Positions 10,871 through 42,058 of a DNA stretch of 42,058 bases are shown piece by piece. Under the pieces are notes generated by a model. It ran no database searches. It had not been told where the DNA came from and worked only from the letters and a program-made list of their open reading frames with translations. The translations under genes and the position numbers were made by a program. The stretch's first letter is position 1. Each line of letters begins with the position of its first letter. This DNA is from Atractiella rhizophila (lineage: Eukaryota): contig MU271490.1 of assembly GCA_021432655.1 (NCBI GenBank), positions 11,684 through 53,741 on the forward strand, in the 5' to 3' direction.

Positions 10871-11165
10871 GGTTTCAACATCTTGTGCATGCGCAGCACA
10901 CTCAAATGCTAGCACCCAGATAACATTTGCTGCGATTTCAATGCGACGCACAATACCATCAATGCCTAAGATACCAAAAGAGTTAAAGCTGTTGAATGTG
11001 CTTCATATTAGAAATGAGATGCAGCATATGCGGTGTGTACTGCTCTGCCGAAAGTGGTGAGCCAGTGGAAAGTTGTGTAGCATTCCTGTGCTCCGAACGA
11101 CACTTTACTTCATACATGGACGTCGCTGTCATAAAATAACCATTTTTTCTCAGAATCCCAAGCCG

Positions 11166-13405
11166 TCAGGCACCAACTGTTTCTCTCGCATGCTCCTCAT
11201 ATATTTCTCTCGCCTTCTCCTCGTGAATGTCATCTTGTTTTTCGAGGCTGTACAAATCCTCCTTGGAAGTGACTACAAAAGAGTAAGATAAGCCACAAAT
11301 AGTACGTCACTGAACGTACCAGTCATTGGTGGTGGTGGAGTATGATCTATTTCTTCTCCGCCTCCTTCTTCGGCGGCCGTTTTAGCTTTCTCGAATTCGG
11401 AGCCGTGATATTCACTTCCAACCAAACACCAGAAGATGATCCACGCAGCAACGACTCCAATAAAGATGGCTACATGGAGCCATCAGTATATTCCACCTGA
11501 GACAATAAAGGCAACCAACCTTGAATTTTGGCATAATCCGGCACCACTTTTCCATGGACGGTCGTTTTGGATGATTCTCCCGCTGTAGCTTCGATTTGAG
11601 ACGAAGCAGAGGACACCATAGTACCCAATTGATAGGCGACGCCGGGGAAAGTGGCTCGGAAGGCAGGAGGCGAGATTTCTTGCAGGTACGCAGGAACGAT
11701 TCCCAATGCGCCTTGCACTCTGTATAAAGGATCGGGACCGATTCAGCTGGAGTAAGGGAACCTACCCGCTCTGAACAAAGAATGCTCCAGTAGCCAGACC
11801 ACCAAACGTGTCCGGAAGGGTCTATGATTAGATCGTTAGAGGCAGCTCCCAAAAGAACCGCAACGAACCCACTATTCTCAAGGAAGCAAATCAGCATTTC
11901 CACGCTTCGTCTGACATAGAGGTGGAAGGAACATACAAGAGGGATCCAGCACGCAGTCCATAAACAACAGGCAATGATCATAACGCGTCTTCCCAAGGAT
12001 TGCGACAGGTAACCGCTTAGAATTCCACCGACAATAGCGCCGCAATTACCTTGCACATTGTGATTAAGACCTAGAACTACAGAAAGTAGCAAGAGTTTTA
12101 CCGATTATGGTTGCCACTGGTCTTCTGCATTAGCGACGTAGCCAATGCGAGAGAACGAACTTTACCTGTAGCCTGATGATTGGAAAGCAGCTTGGCTTCC
12201 TGGAGGTAAGTGGGATAGAGATCCTGGCTACCGTGGGAGAAGAAACTGAATCCGGCCATGAGCAACACTGTGAAGATGCATCGTTGCCAGTGTAACTTCA
12301 AGGCTGCCTTCACGCTCTGGAAGAAGTACTTCGATTTGCCTCCAGTGTTGCCGGCCGCTTTGGACTTCAAGAAGAACTCGCTTTCAGGGAGGAGAAGACG
12401 GAAGACAGCACCCTGTAGGGCTCTCAGCAGGGTGAAGATGTAGAATATCAAAGAGGAAGTACACCGAGGGAGAGGCCAGAGCCGAGGTAGAAAAGCGGTC
12501 TCCATGAATTTTTATCGTGCACCAAAGTCAGATTGACGACAGATGCGATCAGATATCCAACGGCATAACCTTGCTGAAGGATCCCGGAAAATAGGCCGCG
12601 TGCTGTTTTCACCATGTCAGCGCGTTCATGATGAAGGGATACAAGCCTGCCTTCAACTGGCATATTTTCCAATCCGTTCGATGCAGCGAGTCCCCAAATT
12701 CCGCCCATTCCAATTCCAAAGAGGGATCGAACAGCGAGGAAAGCGTTCCATTCGTGAACAAAACCGGTTCCAAGCTGTGGCTCAGTCATCACTTATTTCC
12801 AGGCAAAAAAAGAGCGGTGTCACTGACTTGCAGGACAGCGATGATCAACAAATTAGCCACCAACGGCCATTTACGGCCATATCTGTCTGAAATGATCCCG
12901 AAGATCACAGCTCCCAAACTTCTAAATAGGAGTGTGAGGGTGATAGAAGTCGTAATCGTGTCTGAAGTCATTGTTCAGAATCCTCTCATCTCCAGTGCTG
13001 GTCACTTACGGGTAGATTTATCAAATTGCTTGGATAATCGGCCAACCGTGAGAGAGACGCAAAAGAAGTCGTAAGCTAATGGAATCGAGAGTTGTCAACC
13101 GAACATCTTTTGTTGATACAGGTTGAAACAATGTACCATCCATGGTCCAGGCTGCGAAGTATCATTCAGATGTTAACGACAACTAGAAATGCAACCAACT
13201 AACCATACCATCCACTGAGGAACAGAAGCCATTGCTTAATCGTGAGAGATCGCAAAATAGCAAACAGACTATAAGACCTCGCTTGGGCCCTCTATCAACC
13301 CGATCTTGTCTCAGCTTGCAAACAGAATTCAAGGTGACGACACACCTGTTCCCTAGAGGGACGCTTTGGAAGGTTAGCTACAAATTCGCTCCAGTTCTTA
13401 ATCAT
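11166..13405 (-). CDS. JEN1: Carboxylic acid transporter, MFS JEN1/SHS family (copy A)
   Basis: Spliced motifs GWYAWTMDAYDFF, TLLFRSLGAVIFGIISDRYGRKWPL, RSLFGIGMGGIWG, GILQQGY, SHGSQDLYPTY, GRR, QGALGIVPAYLQEISPPAFRATFPGVAYQLG. ATG 13405 (an upstream exon is not excluded); TGA 11166-11168. Confidence 0.93.
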
Positions 13406-15674: not shown

Positions 15675-17320
15675 TCAATCGCCAGCCAGAGTTGCTACTT
15701 CCCCTTCTGGTACCTCTGGAACGACCGTATCCCCATCCTGCGGCTTGTTTCTTCCCTTCCCTCGACTCCTCTCTACACTGGCCCAATCCCTCTTCGCCTG
15801 CTCCACAATCTTGAAGCTGCCATCATACACATTATAAAACTCCTCGCATGCCTTCGTGAATGTAGGTTCCCCCCTTTCCATCTCCTCTCGGACACTCTCC
15901 ATGAAGCTTCGCATCATTACCGTATTGTGCATGGCAAGGAGGACGAGGCCCGTCATTTCATGCGTCATCAGCAGATGGTGGAGATATGCCCTTGTAGGTG
16001 CTGTTCCCTCTTTATTGAAAGGAATCGGGTAACGCAATGTGAGCGGAGAAGATGAAAGCAGGCTTGCGTCCTCCTTATATCGAGGATCGAAAAGATTGAT
16101 CGCTATCGGGAGAGCCGAAGGTGAATTTGAAGTGGGAGGAGGTGGGAAAGTAAAATCGAGGGCAGCGCCGACAGTGGAGAGAGTGGCGGACCAGTGGTCC
16201 ACGATCAAGTCGACACCAACTTGGGATATAAGGGAGAGGATCTGGTGCGGTCCATTAGCGGCAAGAACGAGACGTGGCTTCTGTTTTGTGAGCGGAGCGA
16301 AGGAGGCCCTTAGAAGGTCGATCGTGCTCTCTGTTAGTGGCTCGCCAGTCGCCGATGAGGGAACTAATGTTTCATTGGACTTCGAGTGCTCAGATGGCGG
16401 GAGGAGCAGGACGGCGTAGCCAGATATTCCGTCGTCTATTTTCCGAAGGGTGGAAGGATCTTCAAATACTCCATTGATAAGGAATTGCGAATAGCCAGGC
16501 GGTCCCATCAAGACCTCAGACCAATCTTCGCGCGTCTCAGCTGACGATCCTCCTAGCAAGGTAGCGAAAATAGGCGCGTTTCCCTACGCACTCCAATGTT
16601 CGACATTCGTTACAAATGGATGAATAAAGGAACTGACCGCATTGTGTGATATAAGCTGCTCCAGCCATTTGATGGAGCGATTGAACGACTTTTCCAGTCG
16701 CTTTTTCGAATTATGAGAACCAACTTGATCCGATAAGGCTAGTAGAATGTCGGGAGGCTTGGAGCTGCCAATCGATGCAAAATCAGACGGAGTAATCTAT
16801 AGATAACACTAATCAACAACAAAAGAAATAAGAGATGAATACAGCGGATGAGCACCCTTGCGATTCCCAGCGGACAGCGAATGGAAACATAGCTATCCGT
16901 GTTGTAAGGCACGTCGACGGTATCGCTCGGATCTCGAGTACCGAGGACAATAAGCGGACTGTTAGGAAATCTCGAGGTGTTGTGAAGCCCAAAATATCGC
17001 GCCATTTCGAAGGGAGCTTGAACATAGGCAGGCGGATTGAAATCCATGCTGTGTCCTCGACAGGCCATCAGTTCCAACGACGAAACATAGACTAAACCTC
17101 ACAAATGCTCCAAAGACATATGCACCATGTCAATCGGTAACCTCTCAATATTATCGCGAGTCAAATGAGGAGGAGTCCCCCTTTTGGAGGAGGGGATGAT
17201 GGCTGGGGTGGACACCGTTTTGCCATTGATCGACAGCGTCCCGACTCGCAATTTTTCAGAGGTCAATTTCGAAGAGAGCTCGAAAGAGAACTCTCTTCGA
17301 TGGGAGCTAGCCTGGCTCAT
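15675..17320 (-). CDS. QTRT2: Queuine tRNA-ribosyltransferase accessory subunit (Qtr2/QTRT2-like)
   Basis: RVGTL...TPAIIPSSKRGTPPHLTRD, KPRLV...GPHQILSLISQVGVDL, INLFDPRY, TRAYLHHLLMTHEMTGLVLLAMHN; 3 introns. Confidence 0.85.
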
Positions 17321-17475
17321 CCGGAGTGCACAGGATATTCAAGCAAATGGGAAGTTTGAACGAAAACACACTTTGATCGCTGTAGTTTGAATCATGATCT
17401 GGTTTGGAAGCTCCCGAAAATTTCGATCAGCGCAGAAACTGCAGTGAACATCAGGACGTTAGCAGAACGCGCGAG
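17321..17475. promoter_or_regulatory. Probable bidirectional promoter QTRT2/ADE1
   Basis: Head-to-head start codons only 155 bp apart. Confidence 0.5.
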
Positions 17476-21925: not shown

Positions 21926-23313
21926 ATGGTGAGATTTTTTCTTTGATGGTCAAGAGGGAACTAGTGCGCTCTGACGCGTGTATTGTTCAGAGCAACCTGG
22001 ACAGAAGTCTCGACGACATCATCACGAGCAAGAAGAAAACCACTCGGGGACGCATCTACCGTGGTGGAGGACTCCCTCGTCGAGGTTCTGGTCGAAAAGT
22101 CTCTGCCCCTTACGACCGCAACGTTCGTGCCGTCCCTAGTCCCGTGCTCGCCAAAAGGGCCCAGGCTCCTGCCTCTGGTGGCGCTCCTTTGCCTGGAGGG
22201 AGTAAAATCATTGTCAGTGGCTTCCCACAGGATGTTCTCCGCGAGCAGATCCTCGTACGTGACTTCCTTATCCGTTTTATGAAGTGGCAAGTTTATTGGT
22301 TGGTGGCGAAGGAATTGTTTCGAGAGACCGTTGGACCCGTGGTATCCCTCATTTTGAGCTTTGACGACAAAGGAAGGTCGAGGGGTATCGCCGAAGTCGA
22401 ATTTAAGTCTTCCGAGACTGCCCAGAAGGCGTACCAACAGTTTAACGGAAGGTTGATTGATAACAGTTAGTATACTATTCTCATCCTTAGGTTTCCCTCC
22501 TATCCCCATTTGCATCGTCACACACGTCACCGGACGCGGTCTGGCCTTGTCGCTGGCTACCTTGATTGAAGGGAATAGCAAGAGCAAGGTGCATCTCAGT
22601 TGGGCTACGCGCCGCACTTGAAACAGAAGAGTCGAGAAGACCTGACGTAGTCCAGGCTGCGCAGCCTTCTAGACGATTCCTTGCTCTGCGAGGAGTCTCA
22701 GGGTTCGGACGTTCAAGCCGTTCAAGTTCGTGGCCGTAGCCCAACTCTCCATGACCACAGTCCTGCACCTGTGCGATCTTGTTCTGCTTCTCCTAGTCTA
22801 TTCTTCTATCTCCTTGGCCACTCTCGACGTCGAACCCGTTTCTGACCAATCCTATGCCTTCATCTTTGCCGTGCCCTCGATTCGCTCCGTACACTTGCTC
22901 GTCATGTCACACAATCCTCGGATCGGTTTCAACCTTTTTGTCTACTCTACTCAACTACGCCAACGATGGACAACAGAATTCAAGATGAAGGTGGAGATGG
23001 TTGTGGATCCCTCCAAAGTCCCACCCAAACCCCTCTCGACACGCTTAAATCCAGCACCCGCCGTCACTGCGCCAACGGCCGTGAGGTGAATTACTCGCTT
23101 TCAGGATCGTGGGCCTAACTGATACCTTGGCTGTCGTGGAACAGACCGACTGGAGTGGTGGGACCAAGGGGCAGGGGATTCAGGGGGAGAGGAGGGAGGA
23201 TTGGGAGGGGTGGAAGGGGAGGCGGAAGGAGAGATGGACCACCACCCACTAAGGATCAGCTCGACGTTGAGATGGATGATTGGACTGCGCAAGCACAGAC
23301 TGAAGCGAAATAA
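21926..23313 (+). CDS. YRA1: mRNA export adaptor Yra1/ALYREF (RRM)
   Basis: ATG-only first coding exon, N-terminal box SNLDRSLDDII, RRM (KIIVSGFP...SRGIAEVEF...FNGRLIDN|KFKMKVEMV), RGG tract, C-terminal box TKDQLDVEMDDW; TAA 23311-23313. Confidence 0.93.
22578..22782 (+). ncRNA. Predicted structured RNA element inside the 511-nt YRA1 intron 3
   Basis: Nested complementary arms: GCAAGA 22578-83/TCTTGT 22777-82, AGGTGCA 22587-93/TGCACCT 22764-70, AGTTGGGCTACG 22598-609/CGTAGCCCAACT 22735-46, ACTTGAA 22616-22/TTCAAGT 22721-27, plus inner hairpins at 22654-67 and 22675-97. Confidence 0.6.
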
Positions 23314-23796
23314 GGCTAGAGTGGATTGGTATGTTAGTTCCTTTCGGATTTAGAATCTGTCTAACACTAGGTTGCTTAACTTTAGTTAACCGTGGTCCTA
23401 TGCTTTTCTTATCCTCCTGCCTGTCGCAGTGTGGTATATGTTGTTATATTTGTCGGTTATGTTCTCTAAAATACAACTGGGTGCCAAAGGACAGCCATGG
23501 TGCCGTGGTTTCAATGCATATTGCTGCTCATGCACGTGCTCTAGGGATGATGAGTACTGATAGCGAATGTTTCCATGGCCATCAAAGAACCGTTATTAAG
23601 GCATTATCTCATCCCCAGGCTGTTGGAGGAAAAAAACTGAAAGGTTGATGATACTGGTTGCGCACGTGAATTTGAGCTGTTCTTGAGTGAATATCGATCA
23701 ACGGAGAACGTTTTTACTCGTTCGTTAAATACATTGGCATCTCAGAAACAATATATCGGCCATATATCATCTAGTAAACTCTCTAGATGTTATACC

Positions 23797-40281: not shown

Positions 40282-40453
40282 TGGCAAAAGTGTCCATCAT
40301 GAGACCTCCAAACTAATGGTGTCTTGGCTCTGTATGATATTACGCGGTGGAAGAACTGCATTGCAATCGCGTACGCTTTCGAAGTCGGCAACTTTACATG
40401 CCAACGTCGCTGTCATCATAAATAACACCGTTTTTTCTCGGAAATTCAAGACG

Positions 40454-42058
40454 TTAGGCACCGCCTGCTTCTCTGGCCTTCTCGTCGTGTACTTCTCTGG
40501 CCTTCTCTTCATGAAGATCGTCTTGTTTTTCGAGGCTGTCTTTTTCCAAGTCATCCCTCGATGTGACTGCCAACTAGTGAGCAGATAACCTGGAAACAGA
40601 TAACTCGACGTACTACCCGTTGGCGCAGGAGCCTCGTGATCTGCTCCAGCTCCCTCTTCAGCAGCGGTTTTGGCCTTCTCGAATTCAGAACCGTGATACT
40701 CGCTTCCAAACAGACACCAGAAGATGATCCATGCAGCAACGATTCCAATGAATATGGCTACATAGAACCATCAGTGTTTTTCATGCGGGCTGAAAGGTAG
40801 CTGACCTTGAATTTTGGCATAATCAGGCACAACCTTTCCATGAACAGTCGTTTTGGATGATTCTCCTGCGGTAGCCTCGATTTGGGAGGACGCGGAGGAC
40901 ACCATGTTACCCAATTGATATGCGACACCAGGGAAGGTGGCTCTGAAGGCAGGAGGCGAGATTTCCTGAAGGTAAGCAGGTACGACTCCCCATGCTCCTT
41001 GAACTCTGCAAAGTATCGATTCAGTTTCAACTGGGGTTTGGGATGGAACTGAAAGTTACCCGCTCTGAACAAAGAATGCCCCAGTAGCTAGACGGCCAAA
41101 CGTGTCAGGCAGTGTCTGTAAGCTCCATCGTCAAAGACCGCCTCGAGAGGAAGAGGACAACAGACCCACTATCCCAAAGATGCACATTAGAGTTGGTCCT
41201 TCGGATTCAGATAGTTGAATGAACATACAAGAGGAATCCAGCATGCAGTCCACAAGCAACAGCCAATGATGACAAGACGCCTTCCGAAGTATTGCGACAA
41301 ATAACCACTGAGAGTGCCACCGACAATAGCACCACAATTACCTTGAGCATTTCGTGGTTAGACACATCGCCGACGGAAGATAACGTAGAGTAATACCTAT
41401 TATAGTTGCGACTGCTCTCCTGCATTAGTGACTTTACAGCAGCCAAAAGAAAGAGTTTTCACCTGTTGCCTGATGGTCGGAGAGCAGCTTGGCTTCCTTG
41501 AGATAGGTGGGGTAGAGATCCTGACTGCCATGGGAGAAGAAATTGAATCCGGACATAAGCAACACTGCGAAGATGCATCGTTGCCAGTGTAACTTCAAGG
41601 CTGCCTTCACGCTCTGGAAGAAGAACTTCGATTTGCCTCCAGTGTTGCCGGCCGCCTTGGACTTCAAGAAGAACTCGCTTTCAGGGAGGAGCAGACGGAA
41701 GACAGCACCCTGCAGGGCTCTCAGCAGCGCGAAGAGGCAGAATATCAAAGAGGACGTACACCGAGGGAGAGGCCAGAGCCGAGGTAGAAAAGCGGTCTCC
41801 ATGAATTTTTATCGTGCACCAAAGTTAGATTGACGACGGCAGCGATGAGATATCCACAAGCGTAGCCTTGCTGGAGGATTCCGGAGAACAAACCTCGTGC
41901 TGTTTTGCTCCGTTAACGATTTCAAGAAGGAGGGATACAAGGCTACCTTCAACTGGCATGTTTTCCAATCCGTTCGATGCCGCGAGTCCCCAAATTCCAC
42001 CCATTCCAATTCCAAAGAGGGATCGAACAGCTAGGAAAGCGCTCCATTCGTCAACAAA
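40454..42058 (-). CDS. JEN1: Carboxylic acid transporter, MFS JEN1/SHS family (copy B, 5' part outside window)
   Basis: Same exon structure as copy A with high identity; NFFSHGSQDLYPTY, QGAWGVVPAYLQEISPPAFRATFPGVAYQLGN; TAA 40454-40456. Confidence 0.93.
40468..40507 (-). repeat. 16-bp direct repeat with 24-nt period (EKARE repeats in JEN1 copy B tail)
   Basis: CTTCTCTGGCCTTCTC at 40468-83 and 40492-507; a degenerate equivalent (EKAREIYEEHARE) is present in copy A. Confidence 0.85.

Follow-up and report, generated by a model that had tools for sequence, protein, structure and literature searches.

A long intron with a stable predicted rod and a remote candidate branch site in a Yra1/ALY-type gene of Atractiella rhizophila

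Why should a fungal gene whose four other introns measure 57–62 nucleotides (nt) carry one intron of 511 nt, and could this intron serve to hold the output of the gene in check? The question is raised by an ALY/REF/Yra1-type gene of Atractiella rhizophila, which is located at 21926–23313 on the forward strand of a stretch of 42,058 nt of contig MU271490.1 (assembly GCA_021432655.1, positions 11,684 to 53,741). The whole stretch is called the window below, and all positions are those of the window. The dosage of Yra1/ALY is under tight control. A preliminary description, based on the letters of the window, had proposed that the third intron of this gene (22466–22976) folds into a large RNA structure, and that it acts as a protein-sensing splicing switch or hosts a non-coding RNA. 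What was observed there, that is, the gene, the intron, the stop codon upon retention and the structure, is confirmed by the present analysis, but the interpretation has to be changed in part, as regards the non-consensus branch point and the non-coding RNA. The explanation that we favour, to which we give about even chances, is that intron 3 is a genuine spliceosomal intron built for slow splicing, which would provide the Yra1/ALY-type gene with a tunable, non-productive outlet.

The gene, its third intron and the retained form

The gene model was obtained by in-script translation of candidate exons on the forward strand. The frame is open only with the exons 21926–21928, 21991–22254, 22312–22465, 22977–23085 and 23145–23313, the joints of which are also found in RNA contigs, and the spliced reading runs from start to stop codon over 232 amino acids. 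When the profiles were scanned exon by exon, exon 3 matched RRM_1 (6.6e-11, profile positions 17–66 of 70) and exon 5 matched FoP_duplication (3.4e-8), and exons 2 and 4 had no profile match. Inspection of the translation by eye revealed an RGG run, an N-terminal LDxSLDDII-like motif and a C-terminal acidic LDxEMDxY-like motif. The N-terminal motif is invariant in an alignment of five sequences (A1), and we take the two motifs to be the short N- and C-terminal helicase-binding motifs of ALY/REF/Yra1 adaptors. As judged from its sequence, the product is an mRNA export adaptor of the ALY/REF/Yra1 type, with a central RRM, RG-rich flanks and a C-terminal FoP/REF-type box. The profile matches and the motifs thus bear out the earlier naming of the gene as YRA1.

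Intron 3 occupies 22466–22976 on the forward strand (511 nt, GT..AG) and reads GTTAGT...CAG. Its borders can be checked against public RNA data. A search of public runs returned at least 24 rows that cover the stretch or part of it, with 8 RNA on record, and four of the RNA runs were examined (X19, X3, X1 and X13). All four consist of assembled contigs, the depth of which cannot rank the parts of a gene, and which cannot quantify retention. In X19, X3 and X1, contigs join 22465 to 22977. Some rows skip 513 nt with AG between; they show this joint as well, in a sequence with a synonymous A>G change at 22978. Therefore, the intron and its borders are real, and they are those given in the preliminary description. 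The other introns of the gene that are confirmed by RNA are intron 1 (62 nt, spliced in X19, X3 and X1), intron 2 (57 nt, spliced in all four runs), intron 4 (59 nt, spliced in X19 and X1) and an intron of 57 nt in the 3′ untranslated region (23328–23384, 14 nt past the stop codon, spliced in X19 and X1). By this comparison within the gene, intron 3 is about 8.7 times as long as the others, close to the tenfold excess that had been claimed with respect to the introns of the whole window, a wider scope than the one covered here.

Intron 3 interrupts the end of the RRM, as noticed before, since exon 3 covers the RRM_1 profile up to position 66 of 70. If the intron is retained, the frame (...LIDN-S-stop) meets an in-frame TAG at 22468–22470, one codon into the intron, so the immediate stop that had been predicted does follow, and the resulting product of 141 amino acids lacks the last RRM strand, the RGG region and the C-terminal box. 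A product of this kind is present in the protein library. A phmmer search with exon 2 gave six matches, four of which are fragments. The best one, P0001 (141 amino acids, 100% identity over exon 2), is the gene itself, spliced at introns 1 and 2 but read through intron 3 as far as the TAG; it spans 21926–22470, and the true C-terminal 91 amino acids are absent from it. Going by the letters of P0001, the public model or transcript for this gene is the retention form, and the long intron appears to mislead annotation.

RNA contigs that bear intron 3 occur in two of the four runs, with the reservation on quantity stated above. In X19, a contig of 541 nt (22466–23006) comprises all of intron 3 together with the first 30 nt of exon 4, and thus spans the acceptor. 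In X3, a root metatranscriptome whose contigs also join across introns 1 and 2, one contig covers 22546–22872 with a depth figure similar to that of the exons, and another covers 22936–23026 and bridges the acceptor of intron 3. As a rough hint only, the depth in X19 is 108 for the intron 3 contig versus 637 and 370 for the spliced joints, whereas the unspliced forms have 12 versus 986 for intron 2 and 44 versus 1624 for intron 4. The intron 3 contig of X19 starts exactly at the first base of the intron (22466), without any overlap with exon 3 but with the full 30-nt overlap with exon 4, unlike the contig across intron 2, which has a 30-nt exon overlap at both ends. Among the records listed, this start hints at RNA cut at the 5′ splice site, and would fit a lariat intermediate, branch-junction reads or an excised intron. 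The contigs of X1 and X13 lie outside the body of intron 3 (X13 covers exons 2–3 only) and are not informative on its absence. No joints that would indicate nested or alternative splicing within intron 3 were seen in the four runs.

Two irregular joints elsewhere in the gene should be noted. The intron of the 3′ untranslated region has variant joints in X19, which skip 51 or 52 nt with one or two extra letters and look like an indel allele. In addition, a contig of X1 joins 22445 in exon 3 to 23223 in exon 5, with 777 nt skipped; there are 7 shared letters and the shorter side has 23 letters, and the joint is probably a template-switch artefact.

The predicted rod and the candidate branch site

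Then, is the predicted structure of intron 3 more stable than expected by chance? The core region, 22570–22790, has a folding energy of −94.3 kcal/mol with a z-score of −4.98, and none of 200 shuffles was as stable. The reverse complement of the core reaches −79 kcal/mol and a z-score of −1.51, with 14 of 200 shuffles as stable. G-U pairs account for 10 of the 80 pairs in the core fold and for 15 of the 115 pairs in the extended fold described below, and the difference between the two strands indicates that the stability depends on the G-U pairs of the sense RNA. For a wider comparison, windows of 221 nt were scanned on both strands of the 42-kilobase (kb) window (n = 2092) with the energy regressed on composition, and the core ranked 1 of 2092 for over-stability, with a residual z-score of −4.33. 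However, the excess over shuffles holds for the core and not for the intron as a whole, which folds at −146.1 kcal/mol with a z-score of −1.57 (6 of 100 shuffles) and is not significant.

In the minimum-energy fold, the core forms a rod of about 207 nt (22577–22783, forward strand), in which stacked helices close a three-hairpin junction, in agreement with the multibranched structure of about 200 nt that had been described. The rod contains a perfect helix of 12 base pairs (bp), whose 5′ arm (22598–22609) pairs with the 3′ arm (22735–22746) with a probability of 0.99. There are also three helices of 7 bp, at 22587–22593/22764–22770, 22616–22622/22721–22727 and 22577–22583/22777–22783. The three inner hairpins (22631–22719) are located at 22631–22674, 22675–22697 and 22702–22719, the second with the stem 22675–22684/22688–22697. 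The 12-bp helix, the first two 7-bp helices and the hairpin 22675–22697 had all been recognized from the letters; the third helix had been read as a stem of 6 bp (22578–22583/22777–22782) and is one pair longer in the fold. The palindrome of 14 nt at 22654–22667, which had been taken for an inner hairpin, does exist, but the fold uses it in the hairpin 22631–22674.

Short helices extend the rod outward to 22526–22846, i.e., to about 320 nt, and in the outermost one GUCA (22526–22529) pairs with UGAC (22843–22846). The region 22520–22865 folds at −128 kcal/mol with a z-score of −3.98, and none of 100 shuffles was as stable. Between the 5′ splice site and the base of this extended rod there are 60 nt, and the base overlaps with a candidate branch motif at 22842–22846.

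Where, then, would the branch site of intron 3 be? A motif scan of the intron found only two CTRAY motifs, both of them CTGAC: one at 22642, inside the rod, and the other at 22842–22846 (branch A at 22845, if used), which is 131 nt from the acceptor and has a predicted unpaired probability of 0.23. Neither CTRAY nor YTNAY occurs in the intron less than 114 nt from the acceptor, and the preliminary description was right to find no CTRAC close to the acceptor. The acceptor is preceded by a pyrimidine-rich, unstructured tract of 178 nt (22797–22974) that is free of AG. An AG-free run of this length occurred in 4 of 20000 shuffles of the whole intron and in 56 of 20000 shuffles of the tail only. 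Of the 16 dinucleotides, AG is the sole one absent from the tract (expected 4.8), where GA and AA occur 7 times each and GG 4 times. Consequently, composition does not account for this AG exclusion zone, whose 178 nt are above a threshold of 100 nt. From the candidate branch site to the acceptor (22846–22976), no structure is predicted (z-score +0.82).

Distant branch points are typically marked by an AG exclusion zone that includes a consensus branch site, and such zones have been linked to regulated splicing; in this scheme, step 1 takes place far upstream and the first downstream AG is then used (PMC1431707). Thus, the branch point of intron 3 seems to be consensus but remote, not degenerate. 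The preliminary description had drawn a parallel with the non-consensus branch point of the yeast YRA1 intron, which is probably wrong in view of the consensus CTGAC 131 nt upstream and the AG-free tract. As for the donor, crude counts of donor hexamers were uninformative on whether GTTAGT is weak.

Weighing the explanations

In the explanation that we favour, CTGAC at 22842–22846 would be the branch point, 131 nt upstream of the acceptor, and after step 1 the acceptor would be found as the first AG downstream. AG would be excluded from the tract because the acceptor is chosen in this way. In splicing, the rod may help as a zipper, or it may gate the recognition of the branch site, with the branch motif paired in the outermost helix. 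That is, masking of the branch site by the basal helix may be an alternative to the zipper. RNA that is left unspliced or half-spliced would be non-productive, and probably degraded by nonsense-mediated decay (NMD). By analogy with the known systems discussed below, the protein might feed back on the splicing of intron 3. In favour of the explanation are the over-stable rod, the AG-free tract with CTGAC, the RNA contigs that bear intron 3, the library product of 141 amino acids, and the precedent of long YRA1 introns in other fungi and in the distant homologues described below.

Several observations, however, weigh against this explanation. Feedback at the level of the protein is pure analogy. 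The degenerate CTCAAC about 22 nt upstream of the acceptor may be an alternative candidate for the branch site. Unspliced contigs are present in X19 for introns 2 and 4 as well, and the intron contigs of X3 may stem from DNA carry-over in the RNA library. Through the rod, the predicted distance from the 5′ splice site to the branch site decreases from 374 to 41 (ensemble median 29.5), but this shortening is not beyond chance: the median of shuffles is 56, and 44 of 150 shuffles reach 41 or less. The zipper idea is therefore unsupported beyond chance by the distance measure. Strain variation adds another point. Only one variable site was seen in the core, 22638 in the first inner hairpin, where X19 has T and X3 has C instead of A. 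It pairs with 22667 in the fold, and the pair is broken in both other strains without a compensating change, at a cost of about 3 kcal/mol for each variant, although the rod stays intact. These variants speak mildly against constraint on this inner hairpin and have no bearing on the main helices.

Outside the core, X3 has an extra A after 22799. Its contig also suggests that this strain has an 11-nt deletion in the AG-free tail (about 22925–22935), which creates no AG; by eye, the 13 loose letters before 22936 match 22912–22924 with one change.

Could the relatives of the gene support a conserved intron? No orthologous intron 3 was found among nine metagenome loci, and there is thus no support from conservation or covariation, which is a further point against. 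The nine loci (L001–L009) came from a search of metagenome contigs with alignment A1. Two other searches gave nothing: exon 2 against longer proteins had 482 candidates, none of which scored, and exon 3 against metagenome contigs had 597 pattern matches and 0 relatives. The nine loci were compared by tblastn with single-exon peptides and by reading the DNA: L001, L002, L003 and L005 look like spliced complementary DNA, and L004 and L009 contain exon 2 only. L006 and L008, which have the same sequence, represent a yeast-like gene with an intron of 840 nt (L006:2528–3367), and L007 is a distant homologue with an intron of 723 nt (L007:605–1327). Several windows in these introns have z-scores of −2 to −3.2 (down to −3.2 and −2.8, with 30 shuffles), and the branch region of L006 reads AACTAAC, close to the acceptor. 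BLAST of intron 3 against the nine loci gave chance matches only (E ≥ 1.5). L006, L007 and L008 have no intron at the position of intron 3, and their long introns are located at the position of the short intron 2 of the gene, which also speaks against the explanation. Consequently, the feature of intron 3 is not simply inherited; as these genes read, long introns recur in the Yra1/ALY family but not at one position.

Another account is that the rod is a constitutive zipper, by which a spliceosome tuned to introns of 57–62 nt can handle 511 nt, without regulation and without protein sensing. The rod base is near both the 5′ splice site and the candidate branch site, as in the geometry that defines the zipper stems of yeast (PMC2536676), and the predicted distance drops from 374 to 41. 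The spliced contigs of X19 are deeper than its intron contig, and X1 has a spliced joint. However, a similar shortening is obtained with shuffled sequences (44 of 150), and the account leaves unexplained why a long intron, a distant branch point and an immediate stop should come together in this gene, the homologues of which repeatedly have long introns. We consider it unlikely.

Intron 3 might also be the relic of an insertion, such as an introner-like element, a foldback element or a miniature inverted-repeat transposable element, with an inherited structure that has no present role. Fungal introner-like elements are longer than regular introns and have stable predicted secondary structure (PMC3609843). 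In addition, the long introns of the homologues are located elsewhere, so intron 3 may be a lineage-specific gain. This origin is nevertheless improbable, for the 42-kb window has no second copy of the intron (matches of at most 19 nt with E ≥ 2.6 only), the two strands of the core fold very differently (−4.98 versus −1.51), unlike those of a simple DNA palindrome, and the exclusion of AG downstream points to selection acting on splicing signals. Reading of the sequence revealed no terminal inverted repeats; target-site duplications were not searched for.

It is quite improbable that the rod is a stable non-coding RNA, freed from the excised intron and acting elsewhere, as the preliminary description had offered for the intron. 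The sense-strand-specific stability of the fold, the exon-like depth figure of the X3 contig (22546–22872) and the start of the X19 contig at intron base 1, which also fits an abundant excised intron, are in line with such an RNA. Yet a search of Rfam found nothing in the intron at E ≤ 10 and, across the window, nothing that reached the gathering score, and the sense strand has no C-box-like motif, which leaves the proposal unsupported. The fold is one closed rod and not the two-hairpin layout of H/ACA RNAs (H/ACA boxes were not scanned separately), and the X19 contig extends past the acceptor into exon 4, which a processed fragment alone would not do. Finally, a chance structure in a neutral long intron, to which the non-significant z-score of the whole intron and the lack of conservation support would point, is very improbable, as none of the shuffles was as stable as the core (0 of 200) or the extended rod (0 of 100), the core ranks first among 2092 windows, the 12-bp helix is perfect and 22638 is the sole core difference seen in two other strains.

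The explanation of an intron built for slow splicing could be carried further, into a scenario that we regard as a long shot. The lineage would have independently rebuilt the control by a long and slow intron at a different intron, where the rod of about 320 nt would hold the branch site in its basal helix, step 1 would be helicase-dependent, and the AG-free spacer of 131 nt would slow exon ligation. Access to the branch site would then depend on the helicase activity of the export or splicing machinery, for which Sub2/UAP56, the adaptor's own partner, is presumably the obvious candidate. Slow exon ligation would cause the lariat intermediate to accumulate, and RNA unwinding, not sequence-specific binding, would be the means by which the gene monitors the balance of its own complex. 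Such a design would be undescribed in fungi. None of the literature matches listed has Yra1 together with a zipper stem, a distant branch point or an AG exclusion zone, which is no claim of absence from print.

Two other features of the window were observed apart from the gene. The second most over-stable region of the window scan is located at 17100–17341 on the reverse strand (−86.7 kcal/mol, z-score −3.94, 0 of 200 shuffles as stable). It contains a perfect hairpin of 13 bp, has no Rfam match at gathering score and is surrounded by short open reading frames only. In addition, a segment of about 1.6 kb occurs twice in direct orientation, at 11139–12762 and 40427–42058, 29.3 kb apart and with 80–92% identity in pieces, and the second copy continues past the end of the window. 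The two copies are probably a paralogous gene pair.

Comparison with known systems

How does the locus compare with introns that are already known to be slow or regulated? A long intron whose branch motif is deviant is common to all YRA1 genes of hemiascomycetes, and in Yarrowia the YRA1 intron is 850 bp long and inefficiently spliced, and the unspliced RNA is a target of NMD (PMC2911113). In S. cerevisiae, the decay of YRA1 RNA is Edc3-dependent via modular intron elements, with the involvement of Mex67 (PMC2864733). For YRA1 of Cryptococcus neoformans (CNG03240), retention is increased in upf1 mutants, i.e., on UPF1 deletion (PMC5006051). With long introns and NMD-sensitive retention in these fungi (PMC2911113; PMC5006051), the comparison with YRA1 made in the preliminary description is apt. 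The gene of A. rhizophila shares with the S. cerevisiae and hemiascomycete genes the protein family, one atypically long intron in the RRM-coding part (511 nt, against 57–62 nt for the four others) and a presumably non-productive unspliced RNA, and, going by the contigs of X19 and X3, it shares with the C. neoformans gene an intron-retaining mRNA (PMC5006051). However, the long intron of the yeast type is at the position of intron 2, as in L006/L008, and here it is intron 3. Moreover, the yeasts have a deviant branch motif, whereas here a candidate consensus CTGAC is 131 nt away from the acceptor and accompanied by an AG-free tract.

The yeast introns with zipper stems (RPS17B, RPS6B and RPL7B) resemble intron 3 in that a segment following the 5′ splice site is complementary to one that precedes the branch site; here, the predicted helices run inward from 22526 and 22846 (z-score −3.98). 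They differ in that the rod is far larger here, with about 115 predicted pairs, and its shortening of the distance is no better than chance. In RPL7B, an alternative structure bound by protein abolishes the zipper (PMC12311795), and by analogy this protein-switched zipper is a plausible model for a switch in intron 3.

As for the remote branch site, the NMD switch at PTB exon 11 is a case of regulated splicing with a distant branch point (PMC1431707). Human PTB exon 11 and alpha-tropomyosin exon 3 resemble intron 3 in three respects: AG is missing over 150 nt or more, a consensus branch motif falls within this stretch, and the vicinity of the acceptor lacks a good one. However, these are metazoan cassette exons, many of which are regulated by PTB, whereas the present case concerns the retention of an intron, in a fungus whose introns are normally very short. 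In yeast, introns with a remote branch point rely on a stem-loop between the branch site and the acceptor, as in COF1 (PMC3239191), and such a structure is absent here (z-score +0.82).

Another mRNA-export factor, CHTOP, has a retained intron with an early stop, and the protein binds predicted intronic stem-loops (PMC5175361), in accordance with the autoregulation that had been cited for it earlier. CHTOP shares the FoP/C-terminal domain family with the present gene, and its intron 2 is similar to intron 3 in the early stop upon retention and the predicted stem-loops. Nevertheless, it is another gene, the two introns have no sequence relation, and protein binding to the stem-loops is described for CHTOP.

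Taken together, the locus fits the general scheme of a slow YRA1 intron, but stands apart in where the intron lies, in how its splicing would be handicapped and in how large the structure is. In yeasts the handicap is the deviant branch motif, and here it would be a distant branch point and a large rod. If the control module does recur at different intron positions and with different handicaps, selection would act on having a slow intron, not on one sequence. The locus could also provide a compact fungal counterpart of the AG exclusion zones and distant branch points known from mammals, and it lends itself to testing what a very stable structure does when it lies over a branch site in an intron.

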